From positions 1 to 64,000 of IMG/VR virus record IMGVR_UViG_3300014204_000002: a DNA stretch of 64,000 nucleotides. One strand, given 5' to 3'. Under the pieces are notes generated by a model. The model searched no databases. It worked only from the letters and a program-made list of their open reading frames with translations, and was not told the DNA's origin. Below, piece by piece: positions 15,003-57,365 of this stretch (positions are counted from its first letter, which is position 1; every line of letters begins with the position of its first letter). The position numbers and the translations under genes are program-made. Origin of the DNA: a virus (taxonomy: Duplodnaviria; Caudoviricetes).

Positions 15003-15076
15003 TATAAATAGTTATAAAACGCACCTAAATGATGCCAAGGTAACAGGGAAGTTTCCTCTTTTTCTTTCTTGTTATG
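15003..15076 (+). repeat. dispersed promoter+hairpin unit, copy A (putative small RNA gene)
   Basis: TATAAATA...GCACCTAA-ATGATGC...GTAACAGGGAAG-loop-CTTTCTTGTTATG; homologous to copies at 22.1, 30.4, 46.8 and 57.3 kb. Confidence 0.7.
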
Positions 15077-15177
15077 GCGGCAAAATATTCTGTGATATTG
15101 TTTCTTCTCCGATGTTAGGTGGGAAGTTTGTCATTTCTTTCCACCAAATATATATCTTCTGAAATTCCATTCTTCTT

Positions 15178-15351
15178 ATGCAATTTTTATGCGTGACGTG
15201 CAAGGCAGCAATGCGCGAGACAATGCACTTCGATTATGAGAACGGCAAATATGAGATACGGCTCAATTGCCCGAACAAATGTAAGCGCGGGTCGTCTCAC
15301 ATCTCCTTTACGTCAATCCCCGGCGAAGTAAAACTGAAATTGAGCGAGTGA
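15178..15351 (+). CDS. small Zn-finger-like protein (57 aa, below ORF-track cutoff)
   Basis: MQFLCVTC...LNCPNKC; TATATAT upstream. Confidence 0.5.
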   Translation: MQFLCVTCKAAMRETMHFDYENGKYEIRLNCPNKCKRGSSHISFTSIPGEVKLKLSE

Positions 15352-15358
15352 CGAAAAT

Positions 15359-15697
15359 ATGAGACACTATAAACCCGTCATAAAAGTACAAGACGTGCAC
15401 GACTGTACAACCTGTGATATTTGCGGCAAAGAATTCAAAACTAGCAAAAGTGTTGATGCGTGCTCAGTTGAACATAAATTTGAAATGTCTTATGACTATA
15501 GTGAGTATTATTATGATCCAGTTGACTCATATCATTGGGCACCAGATATTTGCATGGATTGTTTCATCGAGAAATTTGTGCCATTCTTTGAGCAAATTGG
15601 GCTCGTGCCACCTCCAAATGAGTGTAAATATGATGCCTCATTTGACACTGCTATTGCGCTTTATCTTAAACGTAGGCAGGAATGCTTGAAAAATTAA
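15359..15697 (+). CDS. Zn-finger hypothetical protein
   Basis: CDICG...ICMDC. Confidence 0.65.
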   Translation: MRHYKPVIKVQDVHDCTTCDICGKEFKTSKSVDACSVEHKFEMSYDYSEYYYDPVDSYHWAPDICMDCFIEKFVPFFEQIGLVPPPNECKYDASFDTAIALYLKRRQECLKN

Positions 15698-15712
15698 GTA
15701 TTATAAGTAACA

Positions 15713-16594
15713 TTACTTAGAAAAGAAGATCTTGTTATTTTCAATCACATCTCGCATTTTTGCAGGCCACTGAATGTAAATCCCGCTATGACCGCTTTTC
15801 TCGCTGGTATAATGGAAATATGCACCGCCAAAATCTTCACCAAACTTGGTTAATTTCCATGCACTATTTTCCTTCGTGACATATCCGAGGCGATGTAACA
15901 ATTTGTTTGTTTTGCTTCCATTGTCCCCATATGGTTTACCGAGATCGCGGGCACTGATATGCGCACCTTCATACTCATTTTCTGCAGGAGGTAGGCATTT
16001 TTGATACTTCTCGAAGCTGACTCCGGTTTCTCTGGTTGCTTCTGCTAATGCTACGGCGATCATCATTGTTTTTGGCACGTTTACAATATCAGCAATATAG
16101 ACACCAAGATCTATTTTATCCTTGCATACCTGTTCAGGACTACGCATAGACGGGTGAATGACCGGAGTAACACTTATCGTAGAAACCAATTCTTTCCTGC
16201 GATATTTCGTAAACACTTCAGCCATTCCTCGCTGATGATTTATAATTTTTTCACGCGCTTCCATATTTCTAATCGTATCTGGATTGATCTTCTGAATTAA
16301 CAAGTTATACCCATTCTCATTAATGAAGTTATAAATCGTGCCTCTCTGAAAGCCAGTTGCATTATTCGCAACCGGGTTAACATTTGCGTTTTGTAACTCA
16401 TTTCCATTTACTTTTATGATATACCCATTGAATTCCTGCTCATTTCTTGAAAACAATCTACTAATTGTGGATTTGTCTACATCTAACTGCTTATATAAAT
16501 CAGTAACGCATACAAACGGTTCATTGTTCGTAATCAAAATTCTACACTCAATACCATCTACGGCATCAAATTCAAGTTTTTCTATATTGTGCAT
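15713..16594 (-). CDS. antirepressor-like DNA-binding protein (Bro-N/AntA-like N-terminus, KilAC/ANT-like C-terminus)
   Basis: N-terminal EPFVCVTDL...FINENG; C-terminal ISARDLGK...NKLLHRLGY...WKLTKFG. Confidence 0.7.
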   Translation of the reverse strand: MHNIEKLEFDAVDGIECRILITNNEPFVCVTDLYKQLDVDKSTISRLFSRNEQEFNGYIIKVNGNELQNANVNPVANNATGFQRGTIYNFINENGYNLLIQKINPDTIRNMEAREKIINHQRGMAEVFTKYRRKELVSTISVTPVIHPSMRSPEQVCKDKIDLGVYIADIVNVPKTMMIAVALAEATRETGVSFEKYQKCLPPAENEYEGAHISARDLGKPYGDNGSKTNKLLHRLGYVTKENSAWKLTKFGEDFGGAYFHYTSEKSGHSGIYIQWPAKMRDVIENNKIFFSK

Positions 16595-16605
16595 TTTCGA
16601 TACCT

Positions 16606-16738
16606 CAACAATAAATTAGAAATACGCAATCTTTATATCGGAAAAGAGACAACATATAGTGTTCATTCTTTTCTAATATGAAGGATGGTACCCTTCATAT
16701 TTATTGTTAAACTACATTTGGTTCTGAACTATTTAAAA
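16606..16738 (-). promoter_or_regulatory. structured 5' leader with embedded antisense promoter, copy 1
   Basis: Homologous to 38191-38310 with compensatory changes in the outer stem. Confidence 0.65.
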
Positions 16739-17200
16739 TTAGGCGTAGGCAGGAATAAGCCATGTATTTACGGGATATATTAGATCGCTTCCTTTTTTAT
16801 TGTTGCAATTAGTACACATCGGCTGATAATTTTTAAGTTCGTCTTTTCCACCGCGTGATCTAGGCAGTATGTGATCCTTCGTGAAGAGCACTTCATTTCC
16901 TTGATCATCGAGTCCATAGAGATTAAAGTGATATTGACCGTAATGTCCCTGTCTCTCCATTATGAAATATTGAGCCTCTAATCCACAATCAACGCAGGTA
17001 GTGCCATATACAGCAAAGCATTGATAGCGATCGGAGGCCATATTAATCCATTCTCCGTCAAAGTCAACTTTATATGCTTTACCATTGCGTTTGGTATCAA
17101 AAATAGTTTGTGAGAGGACTTCTTCGATGGAATAGTGTTTTTCTTTGCGATCAAAACGGGGAACAGAGATACGTTTATTTCTGATTCGAACCATCTGCAA
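16739..17200 (-). CDS. HNH endonuclease
   Basis: CVDCG...TKDHILPRSRGG...NYQPMCTNCNNKKG. Confidence 0.9.
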   Translation of the reverse strand: MQMVRIRNKRISVPRFDRKEKHYSIEEVLSQTIFDTKRNGKAYKVDFDGEWINMASDRYQCFAVYGTTCVDCGLEAQYFIMERQGHYGQYHFNLYGLDDQGNEVLFTKDHILPRSRGGKDELKNYQPMCTNCNNKKGSDLIYPVNTWLIPAYA

Positions 17201-17218
17201 AAAAGATTGGTTGTTGTC

Positions 17219-18109
17219 TTATATAAAAGTTTCTAAATTAATGTCCTTGAGCCGGGTTTCGTAATAACTGTATAGATTACGTGGGCCTTCGCAAAGATGA
17301 TGTTTGCATTCAACTTGCACATATTGGGCAATTAGGGGCATGGCTTTTCGTATGTTTTTGAATTCGTCGCCTAAATCAACACGGGCTTTCTCGATCGCGC
17401 CATAAATTTCAGAGTCTGACAACGGCGGTAATTGAATGGCGCCGTCTCTGATATCACGAGGAACCTTTGTTAATCTTGGTGTGTCAACTTTTGACTTGAA
17501 ATAAATTGTACCGCGACCTGCTCCGGCATTTTCGCCCATGTTAAACGGAGTCTCGCCCATTGCTTTACCGACGACGCCTTCTTCACCGCGATCAATGCAT
17601 TCTTGTAGCATCAGGTCTTTGAACTCGTAAAGTTCCTCAATGGTAGTCATTTTGCAGGTTCCCATTAACTCTGTAACCGGTAGCCCGGCATGATCGCACT
17701 CCTGATACAACTTCGTATAATTTACAAATCGCTGTGATTTTGCGCTCCATAAGTCAAATGCAATAAAATGCGTATTTTCGTGAACTTTAATTCGGGTAGG
17801 TGATTTTCCTTTGCCGCAGAGTTCACCGAAGAGCACGTAATCAGTATTCCACTCACTTGCCGAGTTAAGCAGATCTAAAATGGCGTCCCATTCAGGACAC
17901 TGCTTCATCTGCGTATAGACCTCCATGTTTGCGCGAGCCATGTTTCGTGATCTGATTTCTGGTTCGCCGTCAATTAATGCAATTCCAATATTTGAGCCAT
18001 CCTCTTTCAACGTCCAGAATATCTCGTGCCCGAGCAAAATTTGTGGCCCCGGCTCCAACCTTTCCAGCGCATCTAAATGAGGGTATTTAACCTGTTCTAA
18101 TATATCCAT
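17219..18109 (-). CDS. ATP-dependent RNA ligase (Rnl2-like nucleotidyltransferase)
   Basis: Motif I KEDGSN, RSRN, III LFGE, IIIa AFDL, IV EGVV, V FKSK; no OB domain. Confidence 0.8.
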   Translation of the reverse strand: MDILEQVKYPHLDALERLEPGPQILLGHEIFWTLKEDGSNIGIALIDGEPEIRSRNMARANMEVYTQMKQCPEWDAILDLLNSASEWNTDYVLFGELCGKGKSPTRIKVHENTHFIAFDLWSAKSQRFVNYTKLYQECDHAGLPVTELMGTCKMTTIEELYEFKDLMLQECIDRGEEGVVGKAMGETPFNMGENAGAGRGTIYFKSKVDTPRLTKVPRDIRDGAIQLPPLSDSEIYGAIEKARVDLGDEFKNIRKAMPLIAQYVQVECKHHLCEGPRNLYSYYETRLKDINLETFI

Positions 18110-18239
18110 AAGTTATCTTATGTTAGTTAATTTATAAGTTTAAAAAGGTTTATATTGTCGTAAGTATAATTCTTAATTCCAACAAAATCCGATTGTAGGC
18201 GAATGGCACTGAATCTGATCCTTCATGCCACATTTATTA

Positions 18240-19519
18240 AATTGCCTGCTACTTTAGTTGTGGGATACAGCAGGCTTACACATAGATATAAATATCTGTA
18301 AGTATAATATGGTAATATGTTACAAACCTACAAGTACAGGTTGTATCCCAATGCGATCCAGCAGGACCGTATTGAGAGGCATATCGGCGCTTGTAGGTTT
18401 GTATACAATCTGTTTCTTCAGAAGAAAATCAAGCATTACTCTGCACATGGTAAGTCCTTGTCTTGTTTTGCTCTGAATAAGATGTTGCCCGCACTGAAAA
18501 TTGAGTATCCATTCTTACAGGATGTTCACTCACAACCATTACAGATGGCATCTCGCAATTTAGATAATGCGTTTACAAAGTTCTTCAGAGAAAAGAAGGG
18601 ATTTCCTAAGTTCAAGTCTAAAAAGAATCCAGTTCAATCGTTTCAGTATCCACAAGGAGTGAAACTTAACTGGGAATCAAGCAAGGTATATCTTCCGAAA
18701 GTAGGTCAAGTTAAGTGCAAACTACACCGATTTTTTGAAGGGAACATCAAAACATGTACAGTATCACGGACTCCTACCGGAAAGTATTTTGTATCAATTC
18801 TTGTAGATAACAAAGAACCAGTTCCAGAATCTCAACCATTTAATTCAGAGACTACAATTGGTATTGATGTAGGATTGACATATTTCGCTACTCTATCTGA
18901 TGGAACAAAAGTTGAAAACCCAAGGATTCTTAAAAAGACCTCTGTAAAACTTAAGAAACTTCAGCAATCAGTATCCAGAAAAGTAAAAGGATCAAACAAC
19001 AGACGCAAAGCAATCCGCAAAGTAGCACAATGTCATGAAGATATAGCAAACCAACGATCAGACTTCTTGCACAAACTTTCTTTTAATCTAATCAGCGAGA
19101 ACCAAGCAATCGCAATTGAAGATCTGAACGTGTCTGGGATGTTAAAAAATCATAAACTTGCTAAACATATTGCAGATGCTTCTTGGTCAGAGTTTAGAAC
19201 TATGATCATATACAAATGTAAGAAGTATGGAAAGACCTTGTTAACTATCGGTAGGTTTGATCCATCTTCAAAAATTTGTAGCAAGTGTGGATATCATAAC
19301 ATTAATCTCGCACTGAAAGACCGAAATTGGATTTGTCCTGATTGCGGAGCAGTTCATGATCGGGACATTAATGCCGCGATCAATATTAAATCATTTGCTT
19401 TAATGAAGCAAGATACAGGGCAGGATCTGTCCGGTGAGCCTATGGAGATTGAGTCAGACACATTAAGTGCATCGATCAATGAAACAGGAAGCCAACAACT
19501 TTAGTCATTGGTAGATCAC
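18240..19519 (+). mobile_element. tnpB-only IS200/IS605-family (IS1341-type) element
   Basis: Related subterminal palindromes GCCTGCTACTTTAGTTGTGG (left) and GCCAACAACTTTAGTCATTGG (right); right end TCAC; no tnpA. Left boundary uncertain by about 2 nt. Confidence 0.8.
18317..19504 (+). CDS. tnpB: RNA-guided endonuclease TnpB
   Basis: YKYRLYP N-terminus, RuvC-I GIDVG, RuvC-II IEDL, zinc finger CSKC/CPDC, RuvC-III DRDINAA; all catalytic residues intact. Confidence 0.96.
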   Translation: MLQTYKYRLYPNAIQQDRIERHIGACRFVYNLFLQKKIKHYSAHGKSLSCFALNKMLPALKIEYPFLQDVHSQPLQMASRNLDNAFTKFFREKKGFPKFKSKKNPVQSFQYPQGVKLNWESSKVYLPKVGQVKCKLHRFFEGNIKTCTVSRTPTGKYFVSILVDNKEPVPESQPFNSETTIGIDVGLTYFATLSDGTKVENPRILKKTSVKLKKLQQSVSRKVKGSNNRRKAIRKVAQCHEDIANQRSDFLHKLSFNLISENQAIAIEDLNVSGMLKNHKLAKHIADASWSEFRTMIIYKCKKYGKTLLTIGRFDPSSKICSKCGYHNINLALKDRNWICPDCGAVHDRDINAAINIKSFALMKQDTGQDLSGEPMEIESDTLSASINETGSQQL

Positions 19520-21969: not shown

Positions 21970-22096
21970 CCCATAAATAGATTCTGGATTGATTGAGGCA
22001 GGATTAACATTTCAAGATAGATTTGATAAATTAACAGAATTATATGATCGGCGCAGGGTCAGATTGCTAGCATAAACGACTAAAATGCGGCCACTC

Positions 22097-22172
22097 TATA
22101 ACAAAAAGAAAGGAAAACTTTCTCCCTGTTATTTTGGGGGTACGCTTAATTGTGTTGTTACACGTATAAAAA
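22097..22172 (-). repeat. dispersed promoter+hairpin unit, copy D (putative small RNA gene)
   Basis: Minus strand TTTTATA...ACACAATTAA...ATAACAGGGAGAAAG-TTTTC-CTTTCTTTTTGTTAT. Confidence 0.7.
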
Positions 22173-22174
22173 TG

Positions 22175-22387
22175 TTAGTAGTGTCTTGAAGATATGATCA
22201 TCCCATTTTCAATTTTGTAATATGGATTTCTGTCTCCAAGACCTTTATCGAGGGTGATTACATAATCGTTGTTGCCCTCTGCTTCGTTTCGTTCTACTTC
22301 CTCAAGGATAAACTTTGCATCCTCTTCTGATTCACCAGCGACAAGCCAGCGTCTTCCGTCTTCATTAATTTTTCTCATGATATTCAA
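22175..22387 (-). CDS. hypothetical protein
   Basis: 70 aa directly after the membrane protein gene. Confidence 0.45.
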   Translation of the reverse strand: MNIMRKINEDGRRWLVAGESEEDAKFILEEVERNEAEGNNDYVITLDKGLGDRNPYYKIENGMIISSRHY

Positions 22388-28234: not shown

Positions 28235-28921
28235 ATGCAACAATTTAATGTTGACACACCATATGATGGATTTATTGCGATATTCAATCATATAATGAGT
28301 AAGCATGAGTTATTTGTCTCCGAAGATGGCGATCAGTCATATCTTGGCGAGACTGTTTGTATCCACATACATGATCCATTAAAAGATCATGATAAGTTAA
28401 TAGAAGTGTCGTGTCAAGGACAGCAATCTTTTGATTATTACAAGGAGCAACTTGTAGAAGGTAAACACATTAAACAAGAAGATCCAGAAGATGAAGCCGA
28501 ATACACATATCATGGCCGTTTATTTGAATATGAGTACGAGTCAGGAGAATTTGGATCTACGAATCAAATTGAAAAAATTGTGCAAAAGTTAACAAAGTCT
28601 CCATATTCAAGGCGCGCTGTTGCAGTTACTTGGCAGCCATGGAACGATATTAACGCGCAAGATCCTCCGTGCATGGACATCCTTAAATTTAGCATTAAAA
28701 AAGGAAAAGGGTGCCTAACCGTGTTATTTAGATCACATGACGCGCTCAAAGCATGGCCTCAAAATGAGTATGCTATAAGTTATTTACTACAGTCGGTCTG
28801 CGATCAATTGGGCATTAGAGTTGGCTGGCTCGAAATCATATCCTGTGATCCTCACGTCTACATTAAGGCCGATCAAGATCTTGTAAAAGCAACATATGCC
28901 AAAATAGGTAAACATATTTAA
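28235..28921 (+). CDS. thyA: thymidylate synthase, archaeal/methanogen type
   Basis: YTYHGRL, SRRA, catalytic PPCM, FRSHD...N and HVY. Confidence 0.85.
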   Translation: MQQFNVDTPYDGFIAIFNHIMSKHELFVSEDGDQSYLGETVCIHIHDPLKDHDKLIEVSCQGQQSFDYYKEQLVEGKHIKQEDPEDEAEYTYHGRLFEYEYESGEFGSTNQIEKIVQKLTKSPYSRRAVAVTWQPWNDINAQDPPCMDILKFSIKKGKGCLTVLFRSHDALKAWPQNEYAISYLLQSVCDQLGIRVGWLEIISCDPHVYIKADQDLVKATYAKIGKHI

Positions 28922-30417: not shown

Positions 30418-30492
30418 TTTTATATATTGATCGACACAATTAAATGATGCACATAGTAACGAGAGAAAGTTTCTTTTCTTTCTTTTGTTATG
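30418..30492 (+). repeat. dispersed promoter+hairpin unit, copy B (putative small RNA gene)
   Basis: TTTTATATA...ACACAATTAA-ATGATGC...GTAACGAGAGAAAG-TTTCTTTT-CTTTCTTTTGTTATG. Confidence 0.72.
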
Positions 30493-30597
30493 GCCGAAAA
30501 TTTGCGCTTGTTACATGACTCTTTTTGAAAGTTAAGCGACTTCCATTGACATTCGATTTCTTTATATGCCCGTAAAGTCAACTGATAACGTGATTTT

Positions 30598-33146: not shown

Positions 33147-34151
33147 TTAAGAAGTTTTTATCGGACGAAAGTATAATTATTGATAAATATAACAATGTTT
33201 ATGGTCGCTTATCAATATTATACGAGTTTAAGAAAAACCACAAGACATGGTGTCATTGTAAATGTGTTTGTGGTAACGAAACAGATGTTTTAAAATCTGC
33301 ACTAGGAGTAACTACGGTTTCGTGTGGATGTTATCATAAAGAAGTTCAACAACGAATTAGAACAAATTTAACCGGGATACGATTTGGAAGGCTTCTTGCG
33401 GTTGAGCGAGTTAAAAATGACAATAAAATATATTATAGATGTTTATGTGATTGTGGAAGTGAAAAACTTATATTACATTCTAATTTAATAAATGGAAATA
33501 GCAAGTCGTGTGGATGTACGAGAACTCCAAGAAAGCCAAAACATGTAGATAATATCAAAAAAGGGCATATCTTCGGAAGATATACTTATACAGGAATTTA
33601 TAAACGTAATAATAATAGAACTTATTTTAAATGCCTGTGTGAATGCGGAAATGAAAAATTTGTTAGATCCGATGCATTAATAAATGGAACCGCTAAGAGT
33701 TGCGGATGTTATCGAGATGATTCTGCATCTATAAGATTGTCATTTTCATTGGACGAGAGAGCATTACATTGGAAAGGCGGCAAGGGCGATAAGGGATATT
33801 GTTATAAGTTTAAAAGAGCAAGTTTAAAAGAACGAGTACGAAAATTTTTTGGTGATGAGTGTAATATGTGGTAAGACATCTATTGATAATGGCAGAAAAC
33901 TAGATGTGCATCATGTGTATAGAAATAAAGAAGTAATGTGTAATGATGACGAAAGAAAATATTTTGTCCCGTTATGCAAAACATGTCATGGACTAGTGAG
34001 AAGATGTGAAAATAAAAACAATTTTGAGTATAGAGATATGTTTATTAATCTAATACATGAGAAAGGACGATGTTATTATTCAATAGAAGAATATCTAGAG
34101 AAGTTTAAAGGTATAAAACTAAAGAATATAAATTTATATGGAGGAATTTGA
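33143..34151 (+). pseudogene. HNH homing-endonuclease-like gene with CxCxCG...SCGC repeats, split by a frameshift near 33860
   Basis: Three C-x-C-x-CG..SCGC repeats in 33143-33874; the HNH core (LDVHH...PLCKTCH) is in another frame. Restoring 2 nt gives GDECVICGK. Confidence 0.75.
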
Positions 34152-38190: not shown

Positions 38191-38310
38191 TTTATCTTCC
38201 CAAAAGTTCAATAATATGTGTTAACAAAAGAGATGTGAGGCATCTCTTGAAGAGAATAAACAATACATATTGTCCTTTTCAAGATATATAACTTTCGCTC
38301 TCTTTTGTTG
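38191..38310 (+). promoter_or_regulatory. structured 5' leader with embedded antisense promoter, copy 2
   Basis: Outer stem TAACAAAAGAG/CTCTTTTGTTG; conserved inner hairpin; antisense CGAAAGTTATATATC. Confidence 0.65.
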
Positions 38311-38344
38311 GTAGGATCATATATGGAAAATGCAGTAGTTAAAA

Positions 38345-41674: not shown

Positions 41675-41949
41675 ACGAAGTTTACACCGGCTTAATAAAT
41701 AAAATACAGGGAAATGACCGGGCTACCTTTTCCATGAATATAACCATGCCTCAGGATTTATCAGATGACGACAAGAAAACCATCGGGGACTCATTTACCA
41801 TCACGCGCGAAGAAGCGGAGGAAAACCCGATCTTCGAATACTGGTTCGCCCAAGTCGAGAAAAAAGGCTACTGGGCGCCGTGGATGCAAGACTGGACGAG
41901 CGCGACGATCTACCGGTTCTACAGGGGCGAAGAAACGATTAATGTCTGA
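41671..41949 (+). CDS. hypothetical protein (GC-rich insert)
   Basis: ATGA-coupled; about 53% GC over 41761-41940. Confidence 0.6.
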   Translation: MNEVYTGLINKIQGNDRATFSMNITMPQDLSDDDKKTIGDSFTITREEAEENPIFEYWFAQVEKKGYWAPWMQDWTSATIYRFYRGEETINV

Positions 41950-42634
41950 AAAAAGCATTAACGACATGAAATTTGGCGTCACTATCGATGATCGCGAATT
42001 AACCCACGAGAGCAATGCGTGGATCCATCCATATTTAGTTAATGCGTTTCCTAGCGTTGAATTTACAATTAATCGCATAGACGAGGGGGATTTCGAATCT
42101 GACCACGTTATCGTGGAAAGAAAAAAAATAGAGGACTTATGGGAGTCGTTACAGGATGGCAGGTTTCATGATCAGATAAATCGCCTCATGACGCACCATG
42201 ATAAAATTGTCATTTATCTAATCGTGGGATCGGTGGACGCCTTTATGTTCAAGCATAATGCTCTACACGCACGAGGAATAGTCAGGAAGCCCGATGCTGA
42301 TACAATCGATGCAATGATTGCCTCTCTGCTGATCAGGTATAATTTTCGGGTAATATGTGACTCTAATGAGCAACTTGGTCTCAAGCGTATGATTAGGATG
42401 ATGCAGAAGATAGAGGACGAAGATGCACTCGATATTCCATCAAAGGTAGATCCACTCATGTTATCCGGGTGTATCACAGGGTTATCCAAAAAGCAGGTGC
42501 AAGAATTAAGCAAGAAATATGGCACGTCTCTTGTAAGATGGGGCAAGTTATCAAAGGCTCAATTAATGGAGATTAAGGGAATTGGGCCAGCAAAAGCCGA
42601 CAAATTTCTCAAGATCCTCAATAGCGGATTTTAA
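41942..42634 (+). CDS. XPF/ERCC4-family endonuclease with HhH
   Basis: DDRE, GDF, ERKKIEDL..S..DGRF..Q, C-terminal IKGIGPAKA; start moved to ATG 41942. Confidence 0.9.
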   Translation: MSEKSINDMKFGVTIDDRELTHESNAWIHPYLVNAFPSVEFTINRIDEGDFESDHVIVERKKIEDLWESLQDGRFHDQINRLMTHHDKIVIYLIVGSVDAFMFKHNALHARGIVRKPDADTIDAMIASLLIRYNFRVICDSNEQLGLKRMIRMMQKIEDEDALDIPSKVDPLMLSGCITGLSKKQVQELSKKYGTSLVRWGKLSKAQLMEIKGIGPAKADKFLKILNSGF

Positions 42635-45604: not shown

Positions 45605-46360
45605 TTAGACCACCGTTACGGTTTTGTAAAATGCGTGCGGGATAGTAAAGATGTTATAATCCCATTTATAATTAGATCCATCGATTTCGAACAGCACATA
45701 GCCGTTATCTGGCATTTCCTGTGACCCCTGATTCATGAAATGATCAAGTCCTTTCCAACAAGGCGTGTTAATCGTGATATCATTTGAGTCACCCGAAAAG
45801 TTAAATTTGTGCGTATGTGACCGCAAATAAATATCGACGTTTGTGCCCTGCGACTTCATAATCATGGCTTCCTTGCGCTGCCCGGTGCATCGTGAATATG
45901 GCGTCGATGAATAGCCAATTTTGTGCCTCACATGCATGATTAAGTCTTCAATTTTCAGGAATTGGTGATCTCCAAGCCATACACCATCAATCATCTGGCA
46001 CACAATCTGATCGCCTGAAGTCTGCCCGGTGTGATACTTTGAGCCGTTGGTAATGTAAACGGTATCAGCATCAATCATATTGATGAGTGTAGCCGCAATA
46101 AATGCCTGCGCGTGTATGTTAGTCGAAATAACACCAGTTCCATTTTCTTTACGGTTCTCGCCCTCGATAAGGTCGCCATTAACAATGAGCATATCAACGT
46201 GGCCGACTTTTTGCCGCATAACATTCCACTTATCAAAGAAGTGGTTCTGAATAGCGTTTGCAGTATACGTCATGTGGTAGTCTTCATCGGTAACTTCGGG
46301 CAGGCAGAGCGCGAACGGCGACCCAACATGTAAATCAGAAACGACTAACACGCGCTTCAT
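45605..46360 (-). CDS. calcineurin-like metallophosphoesterase
   Basis: SDLHVG, NGDLIEG, GSKYH, H and SHTH. Confidence 0.85.
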   Translation of the reverse strand: MKRVLVVSDLHVGSPFALCLPEVTDEDYHMTYTANAIQNHFFDKWNVMRQKVGHVDMLIVNGDLIEGENRKENGTGVISTNIHAQAFIAATLINMIDADTVYITNGSKYHTGQTSGDQIVCQMIDGVWLGDHQFLKIEDLIMHVRHKIGYSSTPYSRCTGQRKEAMIMKSQGTNVDIYLRSHTHKFNFSGDSNDITINTPCWKGLDHFMNQGSQEMPDNGYVLFEIDGSNYKWDYNIFTIPHAFYKTVTVV

Positions 46361-46716
46361 TGTATTTTGACCTGCTGATCGGCAAACCTCGGATATACTC
46401 GCGTAAATTCGGCATCAGACACGACAAATTCGATTCTTAATCTGGCCGCATCGACAGTCATAGAAGTGACAAATTCGGTCTGGACCCATCCATTAGACGC
46501 ATCAAGAATTTCACACGGAAGATCGGTAGCAAACCCTTCCTCGCGAAATGAGGAGCCGTCATCCTGCAATTCCTGCACAATTTTAAAAAGGTTGCATACA
46601 ATGGTCGTTCCGGTTAAATCTACAGGAATCAGGCTCTGTGTCGCCTCATCATACTCCATAATTCGATACGGAAAAGGCCCAAACTCACCCTTTCGCATAT
46701 ACGCGGTGTTAAGCAT
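46357..46716 (-). CDS. BppU-like baseplate/Ig-like protein
   Basis: PVDLTGTTI...DASNGWV...EFVV...YP pattern. Confidence 0.6.
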   Translation of the reverse strand: MLNTAYMRKGEFGPFPYRIMEYDEATQSLIPVDLTGTTIVCNLFKIVQELQDDGSSFREEGFATDLPCEILDASNGWVQTEFVTSMTVDAARLRIEFVVSDAEFTRVYPRFADQQVKIQ

Positions 46717-46788
46717 GAGTAATATACAACTTGAAACTTTAAATAGATTACTAAGTTAAATGCCTTAACATTCGCGAGAAAAGTCTAC

Positions 46789-46862
46789 CATAACAAAAGA
46801 AGAAAGGAAAAATTCTCCTTTTGCCGTGTGCATCATTTAGTTGTGTTTACTATCTTATAAAA
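46789..46862 (-). repeat. dispersed promoter+hairpin unit, copy C (putative small RNA gene)
   Basis: Minus strand TTTTATAA...ACACAACTAA-ATGATGC...GGCAAAAGGAGAA-loop-TTCTTCTTTTGTTATG. Confidence 0.72.
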
Positions 46863-52464: not shown

Positions 52465-53355
52465 CTATGCCACCACATAGGTCAGCATTACCGACAAATC
52501 CTGTGCTGTCCCTCCGGTTCCTTTCAGGGCCATAATACCAACAGAATCACCATAACTGATACCATACTTTGTTGTATCAATATCAATGACTGTTGTTTTT
52601 GCTGCGGTAGAATCTATTAAAAGCCCGGAATATGTGTTATAGGTGATAACAGGCGTTACAATCTCGTATACGCTATCAGAACTCGGATTTGTCGTCCATG
52701 TCGCAACCTGCGCAATTTTCGTTGATCCGACATAATCTATGATTTTGCGGCTCTGACCAAACCCGGTTCCTGAAATGATTCGAATCCACATGTTGTTGTA
52801 TGCATCATCACTTGCCGAAGCACCAGACGCAAGAGTGATATGAGTGGCGTCTCCTGCCTGTGCCGTTCCGGTCGCTGTTGCTGCTCCTTGTCTGACGTTA
52901 GCGTATCCATCCGATGAAGAATCCACAACCCGACTATACATGAGAGCACGAACCATATACGCCGGGCCCTGTTGCCAGATGAGTGTTTGGCCTAAATCGT
53001 TGATGAGAAGTGCCGCTTCTGTTGAGTCCTCGTAATAGCCAGGGATAAGAATCGGTAACTGCACAACTCCTGTTTTCGTATAATACAGGTTTGATACGTC
53101 TCCGGATAGTGAAGCCCCTGCAATAGTCATCAGGTTTGATGCCATCCCAGTTATCACGCCATAATACACTGTCCCCCCAATCGTGTATTTGAGACCATAT
53201 CCTGCCTTTATGTCAGCAGTTCGATCACTCGTCATCGTGAGCGTGCTGGTGCTTGCAGGAGTGGCTGTATACCCGGTAGATATTGCAATCCATTGACCGT
53301 CTGATGTAGAAGATTGTTCAGTTGAATATTGTAATCCATTGATATATTTGGTCAT
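52465..53355 (-). CDS. tail fibre/structural protein
   Basis: TGTAQAG...ITLA..AS..DDAYN...IISGTG.GQ.R.I.DY module. Confidence 0.7.
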   Translation of the reverse strand: MTKYINGLQYSTEQSSTSDGQWIAISTGYTATPASTSTLTMTSDRTADIKAGYGLKYTIGGTVYYGVITGMASNLMTIAGASLSGDVSNLYYTKTGVVQLPILIPGYYEDSTEAALLINDLGQTLIWQQGPAYMVRALMYSRVVDSSSDGYANVRQGAATATGTAQAGDATHITLASGASASDDAYNNMWIRIISGTGFGQSRKIIDYVGSTKIAQVATWTTNPSSDSVYEIVTPVITYNTYSGLLIDSTAAKTTVIDIDTTKYGISYGDSVGIMALKGTGGTAQDLSVMLTYVVA

Positions 53356-54869
53356 GCTCTCACCTGTGATTTTAAAGTTTCTATTTCGGCCTTTAATTCC
53401 TGAATTGCTTTAACGAGAACAGGAATAAGTTTTGCTGGTGATAATTCTAATTTTTCCGGGTTATCATCATATACCAGATCCGGAATTGTAATACCAGTGT
53501 CTTCCTCTACTTTTTGAACATCCTGCGCAATGAATCCAGTATCAGGAATACCTATTTTTCCGCCATCTCTCATATTCCAGTCAAATGACACCGGCGTCAA
53601 TCGATTGATAAAATCTAATCCTGCTACGATTGGCTTGATATTTGTCTTGTCGCGCCTATCTGATAACCCGGTAATACTTGTTACCTGACATCGGAGTGTA
53701 GAAATTGAAGAATTTCCAAGAGTTACTGTATTGCTGACAGTTGCACTTGATCCAACTGCGTTATATCCTATAGCCGTGTTATTTGTACCTGTAGTAAACA
53801 AAACTCCTGCAAGGCAGCCAATTCCAGTATTGAACGTGCCTGTTGTAAGTCCTTGTAATGATGCTTGTCCAATGGCAGTGTTATCATAACCACCATTAGT
53901 ATTGTACATCGAGTTTACCCCAATTGCTACATTTTCATACCCGGATGTATCAGTGTGTAGCGAATTACGGCCAATAGAAACGTTAAATCCTCCAGTTAAA
54001 TGAGATTTAAGTGCCTGATATCCGATGGCAGTATTGTAACTTCCACTTGTGTTAACTCGTAAGGCGTAGACACCAAGTGCTGTATTTTCTGTGCCACTGG
54101 TAAGAGCATTTAGTGCTTCTGTGCCTAATGCAAGTGACGATGTATTTGTAATAAGTGGTGTTTGGATCATCGATCTCGTCACAGCGGTCAAATAAGTACT
54201 CGTGTCAAGTGACCAAGTGTTTGCTGCGGTTTTCTTGAGAAATCCAGATGTCCCGGTTAAGTTCCCAATTGCAGTTAGATCTGCATCTACTGGCTGGTAA
54301 ATCCCGGTATGATTGTGACTTGCAAGTGCAGCGTCTGAAATTCCATATCCAGCAAGTGTCGTTGGATTTGTTCCTGCTGTGACTTGGCCCTTTGAATTTA
54401 CAGTAACCGATTTAAATGTTCCTGTAACAGAAACTGTTGGCAATGTAGTCGTAATTGTAGCGTTCGCAGATCCGTCAAATGCTGCTGTTCCTGATATATC
54501 ACCAGATAAAATAATGTTTCGTGCAGTTGCCAATGCTGCTGCTGCTGTGGCCGTGCTTGCGTTCCCGGTTAACGCGCCGATAAATGAGGGTGCTGTAATA
54601 TTACCTGAGTCATCTACGGTAGACAATGAGTCCTGAACCAATTTCCCGGTAGCAGAATCAAATCTTACAATAGCATTGTTCGTTGCTCCAGATGGTCCAA
54701 TTACATCACCAGATCCTGCTTCTCCCAGCGCCGTTAAATCCTTGAATTGTGTGGTGCCGTCCCCGATCTTTAATTGGTTAGTAGTTGAATTATATCCCGG
54801 TTCATTGTCCTGTAAAACATGGGTTGAGTCTGTGACAGTGGTTGCTGCCAGTTTTATTGTATATGTCAT
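53352..54869 (-). CDS. tail fibre with Mtd-N-like start, trimeric beta-roll repeats and peptidase S74 intramolecular chaperone
   Basis: Start moved to MTYTIK (54869); NTAIG repeats; SDRRDK...GFIAQ...LVKAIQEL. Confidence 0.88.
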   Translation of the reverse strand: MTYTIKLAATTVTDSTHVLQDNEPGYNSTTNQLKIGDGTTQFKDLTALGEAGSGDVIGPSGATNNAIVRFDSATGKLVQDSLSTVDDSGNITAPSFIGALTGNASTATAAAALATARNIILSGDISGTAAFDGSANATITTTLPTVSVTGTFKSVTVNSKGQVTAGTNPTTLAGYGISDAALASHNHTGIYQPVDADLTAIGNLTGTSGFLKKTAANTWSLDTSTYLTAVTRSMIQTPLITNTSSLALGTEALNALTSGTENTALGVYALRVNTSGSYNTAIGYQALKSHLTGGFNVSIGRNSLHTDTSGYENVAIGVNSMYNTNGGYDNTAIGQASLQGLTTGTFNTGIGCLAGVLFTTGTNNTAIGYNAVGSSATVSNTVTLGNSSISTLRCQVTSITGLSDRRDKTNIKPIVAGLDFINRLTPVSFDWNMRDGGKIGIPDTGFIAQDVQKVEEDTGITIPDLVYDDNPEKLELSPAKLIPVLVKAIQELKAEIETLKSQVRA

Positions 54870-56434
54870 GAGAATGTTCCTCCATTTATTGTCGTGTCTT
54901 CGGCACCGTAGATTACCCAACTAAATGTAGTATCTGTTGCAAACGCACTTGCTCCTGAAATCGTAAAAGTCGTGGCATTTACATCTGATATTGTGCAATC
55001 CGGAAGAACTTCGAATATTATTGGTATTGCTCCATATCCATGAGTTACAACTTCTGATGTTTCCCCGGTTGAAATAACAGCAGTGCCATATGTAGCAAAC
55101 GATCCAGCACTTGATTCACCAGAATTCATTTCCCAGTTTCCACTAACTCGTTTCAGGAATCCGTCTCCTGATAGTGCCGCAATTGCCGTTAAGTCGGCGT
55201 CTACTGGTTGATATGTTCCTGTGTGCGTGTGGTTCGTATCTGATTTTGTTGCCAATCCTGCAGTTAACGCCTCCACGCTCGCAAATTCATTGGTATCTAA
55301 TTCCCATGTATTTAACGCCGTTTTCTTGAGTGTTCCAGTTGTTCCTGCTAATGCTGCAATCGCAGTCAAATCCAGATCTACTGGTTGATATGTTCCATCG
55401 TGATTGTGAGTTGTAGCAGATTTGGCATCAAGAGCATCCTGTAGATCAGTTTGCCCACTTATTGAACCGGTGATATTTCCCCATTCCAGAGAATCTCCCG
55501 TTGCGAAATTAAGTGTTCCGTCTGCTTCAATCGTGACATTGAGCCCTGCTTTTATTCCACCAACTGCTAAATCTGTTGCGATTGGTAATACAGACGCGAA
55601 TAACGTCCCGCTCGTGATATTACTTGCTACGGTCGAGTCTACGTTAACTACATTTCCAAGAACTAAATCTGCCTTTGTAATAGTCACTAGTGGCCCAGAA
55701 TGTCCATTTACTGATGTTACATATCCAGATGAATTACCAAGTTCGTACCATGACACAGTTGATGTTGCATAAATGCTGCTGACACCTGTGTCAGTATTAA
55801 CCCAGACCCACCCATCTTGAGGATCTGTTGGCGCGACAGTTGTTGGAAATACTGCCGTAATTGAAATTTGTCCAATATACGTGCTTGGAATTTTACTATC
55901 TGCTCCAAGTGGCACGTATCCATTTGCAACTCCTTTACTTGCTGCGTCTTCCGGCGTAAATCCAAGAGCGTCTTGCTTTCCAGTCCATGAAACGATTTGT
56001 GTATCTGTTACGACTCGATGACTTGAATCACTTGAAAGATCAGCAAGTTCGTCTGGTATTGGTAAAGTTATATTAGTTGATAAATCATAACCGTTAATCG
56101 TTCTTGTATTAGGAACTTTTGCAGCCAATACAGCCGATAAATCTAACTGTGCAGCCAGAGTTCCGGTTATACTACCCCATGTGCCGCCTGTTGTTCCGGC
56201 GGCTCCTGCAGGTCCAGTTCCTCCCCTGATAGCAGGAGTTACATCAACCCACGAAGTTGTTGACAATATATATTGGAGTAACGAAGATGTTCCAGTAATA
56301 TAAACCAGTACATCGTTAATTAACTCGCCCGGATTAGTTACAAAATATGCATCTCTGGCTGTTGTGTCAGTAAACACATATTTATCCTGTACCACGATGG
56401 CACTCGCGGTACTAATATTTGGTCTGAATACCAT
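54866..56434 (-). CDS. tail fibre protein with repeated shaft modules
   Basis: WGSITG/WGNITG repeats, short collagen GPAGAAG, H.GTYQPVD.DLTAIAAL x2, H-lectin-like end, C-terminal INGG. Confidence 0.82.
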   Translation of the reverse strand: MVFRPNISTASAIVVQDKYVFTDTTARDAYFVTNPGELINDVLVYITGTSSLLQYILSTTSWVDVTPAIRGGTGPAGAAGTTGGTWGSITGTLAAQLDLSAVLAAKVPNTRTINGYDLSTNITLPIPDELADLSSDSSHRVVTDTQIVSWTGKQDALGFTPEDAASKGVANGYVPLGADSKIPSTYIGQISITAVFPTTVAPTDPQDGWVWVNTDTGVSSIYATSTVSWYELGNSSGYVTSVNGHSGPLVTITKADLVLGNVVNVDSTVASNITSGTLFASVLPIATDLAVGGIKAGLNVTIEADGTLNFATGDSLEWGNITGSISGQTDLQDALDAKSATTHNHDGTYQPVDLDLTAIAALAGTTGTLKKTALNTWELDTNEFASVEALTAGLATKSDTNHTHTGTYQPVDADLTAIAALSGDGFLKRVSGNWEMNSGESSAGSFATYGTAVISTGETSEVVTHGYGAIPIIFEVLPDCTISDVNATTFTISGASAFATDTTFSWVIYGAEDTTINGGTFS

Positions 56435-56446
56435 GATTCATCACCG

Positions 56447-56794
56447 TTAATAGATTCCGGCTCCCATAGTAACAATCAGACCAGTCATTGTAGTAGTGCC
56501 ACTAAATTTCAGATTGACTACCTGATCTTTCTCTAAAAAGTATGTTGCAAGCATCTGGAGTTTTGCTGGGTAGTCCTCGTTTGGATTAGTCAAATAATGC
56601 TTGTATCCACCATCGTCAACGAGATAATACCTACCCGCATCTTCCATCGTGCATTGAATTGTAACAACGGTAACATTGCTATTTGCAATACTTCCCGTTA
56701 TTTCTGCTATGACAGTATCAGCAGTTACCGCAACTGGAGATGTGAGTATGAGTTGAGGGAGATTCCTCAGTTCTGTTACATTGCCTAATACCAT
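56447..56794 (-). CDS. structural hypothetical protein
   Basis: AGGTGA SD; beta-rich 115 aa; first gene of the fibre operon. Confidence 0.6.
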   Translation of the reverse strand: MVLGNVTELRNLPQLILTSPVAVTADTVIAEITGSIANSNVTVVTIQCTMEDAGRYYLVDDGGYKHYLTNPNEDYPAKLQMLATYFLEKDQVVNLKFSGTTTMTGLIVTMGAGIY

Positions 56795-56888
56795 TTATTT
56801 TCACCTATAAGTAAAATATATAAACTTACAATATATAATAAAAGATGCAAAAGATAATTATTTAAGTCTGGACGATCCATTAGATATC

Positions 56889-57293
56889 ATGCAACTCAAA
56901 ATGGCAATTATAGGAACGATTTTAATAATGCTTCTCATTGGAAGTGTATCAGCATATTACTCTCCGTGCAACAACTGTTATGTAACAACTCCAACCATTG
57001 CTCCCGTGTATGAAACAGTTGGTATATCATTTGATGTGAGCCCGGCCTATGTAAAATCTGGGCAGTCTACTCGTCTATCAGGATATCAGACAAGTGGCAC
57101 TACTTTAAGTCCGTTAACTTCATGGCAATTCATGTCTCAATCAGGATCCGATATACAAGTATTAAACGGGCAATCGGTAACATTTAAACCAAAGAAGAGT
57201 GCAGCAACATATTCTATATCGCTAACTGCCAGAGACACGGCGCAAATGCTAAATGGGTACGTGAGATACGTAGGAGTTGTAAGAACCAGATAA
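56889..57293 (+). CDS. secreted protein with PKD/Ig-like domain
   Basis: Signal peptide ending GSVSA; FDVSP...SWQF...YSISLTA. Confidence 0.65.
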   Translation: MQLKMAIIGTILIMLLIGSVSAYYSPCNNCYVTTPTIAPVYETVGISFDVSPAYVKSGQSTRLSGYQTSGTTLSPLTSWQFMSQSGSDIQVLNGQSVTFKPKKSAATYSISLTARDTAQMLNGYVRYVGVVRTR

Positions 57294-57365
57294 TTTATAT
57301 AGTAATAAACACAACTAAATGTACCACCCAATGAAAGAGAAAGTTTTTCTTTCTTTTTTGTTATG
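57294..57365 (+). repeat. dispersed promoter+hairpin unit, copy E (putative small RNA gene)
   Basis: TTTATATA...ACACAACTAA-ATGTACC...AATGAAAGAGAAAG-TTTTT-CTTTCTTTTTTGTTATG. Confidence 0.7.

Follow-up and report, generated by a model that had tools for sequence, protein, structure and literature searches.

Intergenic units in the viral genome

The window analysed here is a 64-kb stretch (64,000 nt) of the 143.5-kb genome of a tailed virus. Five short units are located in it (u1 to u5, Table 1). A covariance model trained on two copies from elsewhere in the genome retrieves each of them with E = 1e-7 to 2e-5, at the places and on the strands given in a first-pass annotation of this DNA. That annotation spoke of a family of five. 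The same model identifies five further units in the rest of the genome, which raises the family to ten members (E = 3e-13 to 1e-3 overall). All ten are intergenic in a genome with an intergenic share of 14.7% (P ~5e-9). The distance from one unit to the next is 1-24 kb, for the most part 5-24 kb, their orientations are mixed, and the copies are approximately 65-75% alike, with variable stems.

Each unit comprises, in this order, the TATA octamer TTTATATA, a 7-nt spacer, a 17-nt box with T(G/A)C at its end, a short leader rich in A and C, a hairpin of 11-16 bp and a G-rich tail. The hairpin has a purine 5' arm and a pyrimidine 3' arm with a GTTAT end. In the five window units, the TATA 8-mer and the 7-nt spacer are followed by the box ACACAAYTAAATGATGC, a linker of 4-14 nt and a hairpin of 12-16 bp. 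A near-fixed 3' arm (close to CTTTCTTTTGTTAT) and a purely pyrimidine loop, as initially described, were seen in all five.

Table 1. Parts and genomic context of the five window units, and positions of the further covariance model matches outside the window. MFE values are in kcal/mol.
Unit	Coordinates	Strand	E-value	TATA box	17-nt box	Predicted start	Hairpin and end	MFE sense; antisense	Context
u1	15003..15077	+	7e-6	TATAAATA 15003-15010	15019-15035	G15034 (TGC)	15040-15075, 12 bp, 12-nt loop; GG tail	-11.2; -5.3	starts 2 nt past PolB stop codon (14999-15001)
u2	22096..22171	-	2e-5	TTTTATAC 22171-22164	22155-22139 (..GTACC variant)	A22141 (TAC)	22132-22098, 15 bp; AGAG tail	-14.0; -9.0	start adjoins stop codon of ORF 22175-22378(-)
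u3	30419..30493	+	2e-5	TTTATATA 30419-30426	30434-30450	G30449	30456-30491, 14 bp; GG tail	-14.7; -5.8	RNR gene (30598) with separate TATA near 30557
u4	46788..46862	-	9e-7	TTTTATAA 46862-46855	46846-46830	G46831	46825-46792, 13 bp; GTTAT end at 46790	-14.1; -7.0	downstream gene 46357-46716(-) with separate TATA (ATTTAAAG); positional counterpart in G010
u5	57294..57366	+	1e-7	TTTATATA 57294-57301	57309-57325 (..GTACC variant)	A57323	57330-57362, 14 bp	-11.6; -4.3	between stop codons of convergent genes 56889-57293(+) and 57372-60167(-); no co-oriented gene after
Further unit	77169	+
Further unit	93722	+
Further unit	98960	-
Further unit	122105	+
Further unit	123400	-

Promoter geometry

The T-R-C triplet of the five window units is placed 21-23 nt past the TATA box's 3' edge, and a purine-rich stretch occupies the BRE position upstream of the methanogen-type box TTTATATA. 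A common TATA-to-start geometry was observed in 23 out of 26 units from three lineages, the other three being misparsed. Genome-wide, TATA-like motifs peak 26-35 nt ahead of start codons, with 49 vs a background of ~6-9 per bin.

This arrangement can be compared to the methanogen stable-RNA promoters with their box A (TTTATATA) and box B (ATGC) (Wich et al. 1986; Thomm & Wich 1988; via PMC2699501). A spacing of 23±2 nt occurs in 94% of the M. jannaschii promoters, the stable-RNA promoters of Methanococcales prefer T(-1), G(+1) and C(+2), and the octamer, referred to as the 'A box', is seemingly confined to methanogens (PMC2699501). The units combine the same octamer with a T-G/A-C initiator at 23±2 nt and thus appear to carry promoters of the box A/box B type. 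Whereas the methanogen promoters drive tRNA and rRNA genes, the units would drive a hairpin of ~40-60 nt, and here the 10-15 bp before the initiator are fixed and virus-specific.

Since the TATA-to-TGC spacing fits a methanogen stable-RNA promoter, we read "ATGATGC" as promoter DNA and not as the RNA start. The motifs ATGATGC and GTACC, formerly considered a semi-variable start of the transcript, would then represent the promoter initiator (box B, T-R-C), with the RNA beginning at or just past it. The whole conserved 17-nt box is likewise read as promoter DNA that varies with the lineage: the 17 bp from TATA box to start are near-identical inside one virus and different among related viruses, even at matching positions. 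For this reason, the stretch most likely represents the recognition site of a virus-lineage-specific factor or, alternatively, an optimised promoter-proximal element.

Judged from these motifs, the promoters of this tailed virus are methanogen-type and thus archaeal. The genome also holds bacterial-type genes, namely those for a RuvB-like protein, a class II CCA enzyme and a 679-aa protein in common with Firmicutes. In a bacterial host, the TATA box would instead serve as a -10-like element, and the RNA would include the 17-nt box.

Hairpin pairing and covariation

On a structural alignment that was itself fitted to the covariance model, 92.5% of the cells are paired (57-76% with the partner displaced by 1-3 columns), 11 out of 16 pairs changed at both positions, and the observed covariation score was reached by none of 500 shuffles. 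As purine and pyrimidine arms pair easily, part of this 'covariation' reflects A/G drift opposite U. There are 27 G·U/U·G combinations as against 2 of A·C/C·A (p = 1.6e-6), and every C residue of the 3' arm (18 out of 18) is located opposite G. The minimum free energy is -11 to -17 kcal/mol in sense vs -4 to -12 kcal/mol in antisense, with the sense fold being stabler in all ten copies and, counting three lineages, in 24 out of 26 units. This is in good agreement with the original proposal that pairing is specific to one strand and points to an RNA instead of a DNA palindrome. The pattern indicates that the hairpin is under selection as RNA on the TATA strand; in particular, the G·U asymmetry argues for an RNA rather than a transposon-type DNA element.

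The 3' arm holds runs of T4-T6, where an archaeal polymerase might stop within the hairpin. The next tract of at least four T is 6-30 nt distant, and in G001/G006, members of a related lineage, a T6-T7 tract lies within 36 nt after five out of eight units. The transcript, first estimated at ~50 nt, probably extends beyond the hairpin to the T tract and would measure roughly 55-100 nt. An ATG after the hairpin opens ORFs of just 2-49 aa, which are not conserved, and the ATGATG motif precedes the predicted start; by these features the units are non-coding.

Units in related viruses

Two related lineages, G001 together with G006 on the one hand and G010 on the other, carry eight units each, with the same geometry, a different box and longer hairpins. 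PolB identity between our virus and these relatives is 35-44%. About six units occur at matching genome positions across lineages, and the counterpart of u5 in G010 resides between the same two orthologous genes. Because related viruses keep the units, several of them at matching positions, a reading as small RNA genes is favoured.

Comparison to known RNA and repeat classes

A search of Rfam 15 with the 64-kb window gave no match at gathering thresholds, and four loci holding units of two lineages gave no match on any unit at E <= 5. As no description of such a family was found in the literature either, the initial impression of an unrecognised family is upheld, and the units most likely represent an undescribed family of short non-coding RNAs.

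Several classes were considered individually. Archaeal C/D box sRNAs are marked by a C box (RUGAUGA) close to the 5' end and a D box (CUGA) close to the 3' end. The AUGAUGC motif of the units is C-box-like but is located ahead of the predicted start, and a conserved CUGA is absent downstream. A solitary CRISPR repeat or RNA anti-CRISPR would be identical in sequence to a CRISPR repeat of the host; the unit stems vary from copy to copy, unlike repeats of that kind. MITEs or IS200-IS605 derivatives were rejected: the copies are not near-identical, their stems vary, neither of the two tnpB genes (18482-19504 and 86403-87542) adjoins a unit, and target-site duplications and terminal inverted repeats were not found at the units.

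A putative set of small RNA genes

We give about an even chance to the units being genes in their own right that are regulated together and encode hairpin RNAs some 55-100 nt long. The idea of a multi-copy small RNA family transcribed from the TATA strand thus stays the best explanation of pairing, promoter geometry, orientation and conservation, at the same even odds and with its details altered as described above. The ten units would form one co-regulated set, each of them a self-contained archaeal transcription unit. TBP and TFB together with the host RNA polymerase would initiate at the G or A of the T-R-C triplet. The resulting RNA would consist of an A/C-rich leader of 4-14 nt, an A-U/G·U-rich hairpin of 11-16 bp and a G-rich tail, and would terminate 5-36 nt past the unit, at a T4-T7 tract. 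A lineage-specific factor bound to the 17-bp stretch, or the stretch itself as a promoter-proximal element, would switch on the whole set jointly.

Gene context and alternative readings

The earlier statement that no ORF follows the units holds in a narrow sense only. Seven out of ten have a co-oriented ORF 31-310 nt downstream, and in six of these seven cases a separate TATA or TCTGGACGA-type promoter is located after the hairpin and before the ATG of the gene. No co-oriented gene is found downstream of u5, u6 and u9, and u6 and u9 lack one on either side. As several units oppose the surrounding genes and most co-oriented downstream genes are self-promoted, we regard the units as neither plain gene promoters nor plain terminators.

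Clearly less probable than an even chance, at roughly one in four, is a reading of the units as regulatory promoter-plus-terminator cassettes that act as punctuation or insulators, with the short RNA as a by-product. The hairpin with its T-rich arm would stop or stabilise upstream transcripts, and the promoter would restart transcription or block oncoming polymerase. The location of the units at gene-block boundaries is consistent with this. Six out of ten reside right behind a co-oriented gene, and four begin ~3 nt or less from the stop codon of a called ORF, which in case of u4 has merely 22-30 aa. Two units of G010 are located between convergent genes and point towards each other, and convergent pairs flank cassettes of ~1.1-1.2 kb with ORFs of unknown function in our genome (G000, u8/u9), in G001 and in G010. 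On the other side, four out of ten units are without a co-oriented upstream gene, five out of 18 in this genome and G001/G006 (three out of eight in G001/G006) are located in antisense inside gene blocks, and most downstream genes rely on promoters of their own. The stems are A-U/G·U-rich and, at the energies given above, unlike strong terminator hairpins. The U runs sit inside the 3' arm and not directly after the hairpin, and a classification as intrinsic terminators of the upstream genes was rejected on these grounds. Moreover, because the promoter precedes the hairpin, transcription could not restart without reading through its own stop signal. Recombination at the repeats could in addition shuffle modules, but no evidence of recombination between copies was found, the relatives being so distant that recent indels would escape notice.

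Two known systems, the closest analogues in the literature, bear on this cassette function. The Class I/II intergenic repeats (IRs) of the halovirus HF2 and other haloferacalesviruses have been proven to act as promoters and share a conserved motif where transcription starts, and mutation of the gamma-motif abolishes activity (Russ, Pfeiffer & Dyall-Smith 2021; PMC8707807). Like our units, they are multi-copy and intergenic in a tailed archaeal virus, combine BRE/TATA with a virus-specific motif over the start, and are kept in sequence and genome position among related viruses. The 17-nt box places this layout in all copies of our family, as an analogy of layout only. However, the HF2 repeats have no hairpin, and those that were mapped lie at, or close to, the 5' end of long mRNAs of as much as 35 kb. 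The units have no sequence in common with them, often oppose their neighbours and are followed at once by a covarying hairpin and T tracts; since these intervene, and u5, u6 and u9 are without a co-oriented gene, the units do not qualify as repeats heading an mRNA.

The second system are the promoter-early stem-loops (PeSLs) of T4-type phages, which unite promoter and terminator (Arbiol et al. 2010, PMC2839356; Comeau et al. 2014, PMC4122927). They are likewise dispersed, composite, intergenic repeats of large tailed viruses with a strong promoter and a stem-loop, often beside genes of unknown function, and they mediate recombination, seen as indels or mini-circles with the repeats as boundaries. 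In contrast to our units, they have a sigma-70 promoter, a G/C-rich stem-loop between or over -35 and -10 that terminates upstream transcripts, and an end formed by the Shine-Dalgarno sequence and start codon of the next gene. In the units, the promoter is of archaeal TATA type, the A-U/G·U-rich hairpin comes after the predicted start, no SD/ATG is conserved and no gene need follow, which sets them apart from the PeSL class.

It is improbable that the units are structured 5' leaders or attenuators. In such a case, the gene or genes downstream would be transcribed from the unit promoter, and the hairpin with its T-rich arm would either halt transcription early in a regulated manner or stabilise the 5' end as a stem-loop. 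The co-oriented ORFs mentioned above suggest such a role, above all in case of u7, which lies 31 nt before the ATG of a 64-aa ORF, leaves no space for a second TATA box and could be its leader. Similarly, the G006 unit 16996(+) points in the same direction as the orthologue of the last gene in the block that follows u4, and lies 125 nt upstream of it. Against a general leader function, u5, u6 and u9, as well as four of the relatives' units, are directed at the 3' ends of opposite-strand genes, and six of the seven downstream genes are separated from the hairpin by their own promoter. The distance from hairpin to ATG varies, the downstream genes are mutually unrelated, and no conserved ribosome-binding site was found before them.

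RNA-primed replication origins are found in T4 (oriF/oriG), ColE1 and herpesviruses (oriLyt). That the units are transcription-primed origins, whose purine-rich RNA forms an R-loop on the pyrimidine template in the manner of a polypurine tract and primes the viral family B polymerase, is very unlikely. A dedicated promoter ahead of a polypurine stretch of RNA that gives way to a U-rich one would suit this function, and some arms resemble retroviral polypurine tracts. However, selection for intramolecular pairing, as seen from compensatory changes and G·U pairs, competes with R-loop formation, ten origins in mixed orientation would be unusual, and a separate 1.9-kb non-coding tract (~102.0-103.9 kb) would be a more conventional origin candidate. 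Shifts in strand composition along the genome go with the orientation of the genes.

Least probable of all are strand-specific DNA hairpin sites that act as single-stranded DNA and tolerate G·T on the folding strand, either of the integron attC type or derived from IS200/IS605 TnpB elements. The genome does hold two tnpB genes, and attC sites are likewise imperfect hairpins of kept structure and variable sequence, often at gene 3' ends, just as some units follow gene ends or flank small cassettes; the TAAC...GTTA(T/G)G(C/G) stem base, with GTTAGGC as the end of u10, resembles the attC core sites RYYYAAC / GTTRRRY. This likeness is restricted to the stem base: attC sites have no TATA/initiator module, the fixed geometry of which would be without a role in such DNA sites, the units are widely scattered in mixed orientation instead of forming a one-way array, and no integron-type integrase, attI site or Y1 transposase was found among ~70 proteins scanned.

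Possible mode of action

Returning to the putative small RNA genes, shape and purine/pyrimidine composition of the stems are retained whereas their sequence is not, so that the RNA may act by shape rather than as an antisense guide. We speculate that a protein-binding hairpin, i.e., a decoy, sponge or scaffold, is the more likely function. Of the roles first put forward, a decoy for Sm-like proteins, a trans-antisense regulator and an R-loop primer, none is singled out by the present findings. Adenovirus VA RNAs and the EBERs of EBV are abundant eukaryotic Pol III transcripts of ~160 nt that occur in one or two copies and whose shape lets them bind host proteins. Like the RNAs predicted here, they are viral, hairpin-rich small non-coding RNAs from short units of their own, and the likeness is one of functional analogy only.

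Copy number and anatomy of the units

The genome record of the virus (G000) comprises 143,525 bp with direct terminal repeats, and the window represents its first 64 kb. The five units in the window, each a promoter followed by a hairpin, are confirmed at the positions and strands proposed in the first-pass annotation. The family is real, but larger than five copies: a regular-expression scan and then a covariance model, trained on two copies from outside the window, yield ten units in the whole genome. They score at E values from 3e-13 to 1e-3, the next match in the genome having E = 1.5, and the same ten are recovered from the genome by a box-free scan for hairpins with a purine and a pyrimidine arm. 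All ten are intergenic, with intergenic DNA making up 14.7% of the genome.

Every copy consists of a TATA octamer (TTTATATA or a near variant), a spacer of 7 nt, a 17-nt box (ACACAAYTAAATGATGC, with the ending ..GTACC in u2 and u5), a 4-14 nt linker rich in A and C, a hairpin of 11-16 bp and a G-rich tail (GG.. or AGAG..). The 5' arm contains purines only, the loop is pyrimidine, and the 3' arm stays near CTTTCTTTTGTTAT; in u8 and u10 the loop has an insertion. In 8 out of 10 units, a T4 tract comes 6-30 nt further on.

Two further sites were observed. A possible degenerate unit in the window has a large loop insertion and lacks a recognisable box. Here, AACAAAAGAGA (~38223) pairs perfectly with TCTCTTTTGTT (~38300), which is followed by GGTAGG, and an 8-bp hairpin lies inside. 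Its place roughly matches that of unit 10602+ on the related contig G001, on the opposite strand. About 50 nt past u10, TATATAAA followed by CATAGTTAAATGAGGCATG resembles a partial unit box, but its TATA spacing differs and a hairpin is missing.

Positions of the units (covariance model) and of other features; G000 genome coordinates unless a contig is named, k standing for kb
Feature	Position	Strand	Remark
Unit u1	15.0k	+	window
Unit u2	22.1k	-	window
Unit u3	30.4k	+	window
Unit u4	46.8k	-	window
Unit u5	57.3k	+	window
Unit	77.2k	+	
Unit	93.7k	+	
Unit	98.9k	-	
Unit	122.1k	+	
Unit	123.4k	-	
Possible degenerate unit	38205-38312	+	window
Partial unit box	93850-93875	+	
G000-type box at L058	15321-15339	+	contig G001
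TCTGGACGA element	5501-5509	+	window
TCTGGACGA element	56867-56875	+	window
TCTGGACGA element	93675	-	
TCTGGACGA element	93888	+	
TCTGGACGA element	99102	+	
TCTGGACGA element	101249	-	
TCTGGACGA element	102059	-	
TCTGGACGA element	112829	+	
TCTGGACGA element	122371	+	
TCTGGACGA element	140390	+	
Family B DNA polymerase	12053-15001	+	window
TnpB gene	18482-19504	+	window
TnpB gene	86403-87542	+	
Thymidylate synthase	28235-28921	+	window
ERCC4 nuclease	41765-42634	+	window
Terminase	89482-91989		835 aa
679-aa protein	140427-142466	+	
RNA-repair style set	17219-18109	-	window
RNA-repair style set	922-1003		window
RNA-repair style set	2112-2186		window
RNA-repair style set	120245-121633	+	
Tract without called gene	1469-2708		window, 1.24 kb

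Promoter geometry and predicted transcripts

An upstream gap of 45 nt or more precedes 98 genes of the virus, and among these, TATA-like hexamers concentrate 26-35 nt 5' of the ATG (49 vs approximately 6-9 per bin elsewhere). By inspection, a Shine-Dalgarno sequence is not evident in most of these genes, which is a leaderless pattern. Judged from the sequence, the promoter grammar of this genome is archaeal.

In M. jannaschii, 94% of promoters show 23±2 nt from the TATA box's 3' edge to the start (Zhang et al., PMC2699501). The same study describes TTTATATA as the "A box" of Methanococcus stable-RNA genes, seemingly found in methanogens only, and reports that stable-RNA promoters favour T(-1), G(+1) and C(+2). 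In the five window units, T-G-C or T-A-C is located 21-23 nt past the TATA 3' edge. A single TATA-to-start geometry holds in 23 of 26 units from three viral lineages (ten in G000, eight in contigs G001 and G006, eight in contig G010); the other three are misparsed. Since the T-R-C spacing matches that of stable-RNA promoters, ATGATGC, formerly taken as the start of the RNA, is better read as initiator and proximal promoter element, and the RNA is predicted from that G/A onwards. The proposed length of about 50 nt is revised as well, while the small-RNA reading as such is kept: T6-T7 tracts, which lie at most 36 nt after five of the eight G001/G006 units, far above chance by a rough base-composition estimate, predict transcripts of ~60-100 nt.

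A strong box A/box B promoter would thus start transcription at the G/A of T-R-C, giving a structured hairpin product that ends at an oligo-T stop. Because the units share the anatomy of archaeal stable-RNA genes, we read them as RNA genes in their own right, and we see about an even chance that each encodes a short hairpin RNA autonomously and that all are regulated together.

Another promoter element, (T)TTAAGTCTGGACGA, is repeated as well; TCTGGACGA occurs ten times in the genome, with ~1 expected and 0 in the reversed control. Six copies stand straight after a TATA-like box, 15-30 nt before a start codon, and five adjoin hairpin units (u5, u7, u8, and u10 on both sides). The element is probably a separate promoter class driving genes.

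The hairpin at the RNA level

In a model-based alignment, which was fitted to the structure and hence flatters the figures for pairing and covariation, 92.5% of the cells are paired, as against 57-76% when partners are slid by 1-3 columns, and none of 500 shuffles attains the observed covariation score. Of 16 pairs, 11 are altered on both sides. Independently of these scores, G·U or U·G cells outnumber A·C or C·A cells by 27 to 2. A C in the 3' arm faces G in 18 out of 18 cases, a U faces A (74) or G (25), and u6 has a C-G pair at a position of purine-U in the other copies. A or G opposite U is cheap variation and accounts for part of the pattern; G tracking C is not cheap. MFE values range from -11 to -17 kcal/mol for the sense and from -4 to -12 kcal/mol for the antisense strand, the sense hairpin being more stable in all ten copies. 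Across the three lineages this holds for 24 of 26 units, with G·U contributing 68 of 416 pairs. The earlier view of an RNA structure rather than a DNA palindrome, on the strand of the TATA box, is in good agreement with the excess of G·U over A·C and with C always facing G. The nucleotide pattern places the hairpin at the level of RNA, on the TATA strand, where the partners follow RNA pairing rules. Shape and purine/pyrimidine make-up are conserved and the sequence is not, which, we speculate, favours a protein-binding over an antisense role.

RNAalifold, run on a plain MAFFT alignment of longer stretches, reports nothing past the hairpin. An extension of the helix by leader-tail pairing is not supported: units gain no more stability from their own tail than from a swapped or shuffled one (means of -1.7, -1.9 and -1.7 kcal/mol; Wilcoxon p = 0.32 vs swapped and 0.80 vs shuffled). 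Strong leader-tail pairing is nonetheless present in two G001/G006 units.

Relatives and positional conservation

Related IMG/VR contigs were reached through PolB and a conserved 679-aa protein. G001 and G006 are from the same sample and largely syntenic to G000, with which they have 51 proteins in common. The two together contain eight units in the G000 layout, with the box GATCAACATRGTTGTGC instead. In G010, which has 34 proteins in common with G000, the box of the eight units reads ..ATATGTATGTGCCC or ..CTGTATGTACCCC. The covariance model and the box-free purine/pyrimidine hairpin scan detected no units in G002 (PolB 39%), G003, G008, G012 and G013, of which G002, G008, G012 and G013 had been found through single shared proteins. 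G008 has just 19 proteins in common with G000 and contains repeated Shine-Dalgarno-like AGGAGA 11-mers; it may be a bacterial phage sharing the 679-aa protein. Exact-box scans of IMG/VR and metagenome contigs returned chance matches inside coding sequence only, and in these collections no genome other than G000 has so far shown its box type.

Several units occupy matching places. u5 and the G010 unit ending at 5338(-) lie between orthologues of the same two convergent genes, and both have the rarer ..GTACC initiator. u4 and the G010 unit at 10260(+) each follow an orthologue of a 50-aa XkdX-like gene, and u9 and the G006 unit at 33863(-) each diverge from a RuvB-like gene neighbourhood. u2 and u3 have approximate counterparts in G001, and u6 has one in G006 at the same place with flipped orientation. 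In G001 and G010, a convergent unit pair encloses a homologous small ORF; the cassette between u8 and u9 is not homologous to that of the G001 pair. Matching positions across relatives indicate that the units are old. The clade has retained 8-10 of these mini-genes per genome, and several have kept their place, across ~55-65% protein divergence, which argues for a real and important function.

The box is uniform within a genome and different between genomes, and the stems are not homogenised. As the simplest reading of this box pattern we infer that a lineage-specific trans-acting factor, or a lineage-specific optimum, selects the promoter DNA. At locus L058, G001 also contains a G000-type box, ACGCGACTAAATCATCC, with 4 mismatches over 17 nt and TTATAT before it. 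Its place is the other strand immediately downstream of a G001-type unit, into whose hairpin it points. This suggests that two box types once coexisted, or a bidirectional arrangement.

Alternative readings

The main rival to autonomous RNA genes, which we hold to be rather unlikely, is a punctuation element, i.e. a stop, a roadblock or a recombination point with the RNA as a by-product. Plain terminators were rejected: four of the ten units have no co-oriented upstream gene, the A-U-rich stems are weak, and a promoter would serve no purpose.

A leader or attenuator is improbable. The statement that no ORF follows holds for u5, u6 and u9 and fails for the seven units with a co-oriented downstream gene, yet for six of these seven genes a separate TATA or TCTGGACGA lies between the hairpin and the ATG. 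Only u7, 31 nt before a 64-aa ORF, could be a leader. Gene promoters were dismissed on the same ground and because the genes ahead of u5, u6 and u9 lie on the opposite strand with their 3' ends towards the unit; around u6 and u9, neither flanking gene is co-oriented. Of the eight units in G001/G006, three run antisense within gene blocks, and one more faces a convergent gene.

R-loop origins, which would make the units start points of replication, are very improbable. A 1.9-kb non-coding tract near 102-104 kb is a more conventional origin candidate. A single-strand DNA site is the least probable of these readings.

Peptide coding does not apply either: frames from ATGATG span 4-24 aa, are unconserved and lie before the predicted start, and ORFs from GTTATG after the hairpin span 2-49 aa and are likewise unconserved. 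C/D-box, attC, MITE and TnpB-remnant readings were discarded since the units fail their defining features. A match to a known family, considered in the first-pass annotation, was not found in Rfam at gathering thresholds or at E <= 5.

Relation to known systems

Our literature search found no description of such promoter-hairpin units and no multi-copy small-RNA gene family in archaeal viruses. Among published systems, the intergenic repeats of HF2 and the PeSLs of T4-type phages come closest. In the class I repeats of HF2, a gamma motif spans the start site and is needed for promoter activity (PMC8707807), and the unit box parallels this motif. T4-type PeSLs, from which our units differ, have a stem-loop within a sigma-70 promoter and themselves end in SD and ATG. 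Even if punctuation were their only role, they would be the first archaeal counterpart of PeSL cassettes.

To our knowledge, very few non-coding RNAs are described in archaeal viruses. If they acted as decoys or primers, the RNAs would bring a new subject into the study of virus-host conflict in archaea. We consider decidedly unlikely, as a whole, the far-reaching picture of a regulon of ~10 hairpin RNAs in tailed viruses of methanogen-like archaea, with a box co-evolving with a virus-encoded transcription factor and abundant A-U/G·U-rich purine/pyrimidine hairpins that act on a host protein (RNA-binding, RNA-processing or defence) as its decoys or sponges. If true, archaea would have their equivalent of the VA RNAs of adenovirus and the EBERs of herpesvirus, and with it a viral ncRNA class undescribed for them. 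The lineage-specific promoter box provides an experimental handle that should reveal a virus-specific transcription regulator and timing class. As compact, portable methanogen-type promoter-hairpin-terminator modules, the units could also serve as genetic parts.

Virus and host

Among the gene products of G000 are an intein-containing family B polymerase, a B12-dependent ribonucleotide reductase, tail fibres, a portal and a terminase. Among deposited viruses, the best matches of the polymerase are haloarchaeal tailed viruses (24-27% identity); no relative was found in 185,579 species genomes, nor a match of the portal and putative capsid proteins in 50,697 phage records. The thymidylate synthase fits best the methanogen-type model TIGR03283 (2e-47), and the ERCC4 nuclease archaeal Hef/Xpf. 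These two genes are the best clues to a host that would be a methanogen-like euryarchaeon. A bacterial host is unlikely in our view; there, the TATA would function like a -10 element, and a longer sRNA would have the box as its 5' end. Bacterial-type proteins do occur in G000, namely a RuvB-like protein, a class II CCA-adding enzyme and the 679-aa protein that it has in common with Firmicutes. The latter shows 45-78% identity in many viral contigs and 50-63% in Firmicutes and other bacteria, and also occurs in one Thorarchaeota contig; given this spread it says nothing on the host, and its gene is very widely exchanged. It has no Pfam match.

The polymerase carries its Intein_splicing domain at residues 554-701, and the terminase is unusually long. 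Both TnpB genes (OrfB_IS605 and Cas12f-like TNB) belong to the IS200/IS605-type RNA-guided nucleases. An RNA-repair style set comprises an RNA ligase, the class II CCA-adding/HD enzyme, a tRNA-Leu(TAA) and an odd tRNA-like gene whose anticodon is called as 2 bases; around this gene a tract without a called gene extends. The CCA enzyme and a PIN-like ORF directly precede u8 upstream.
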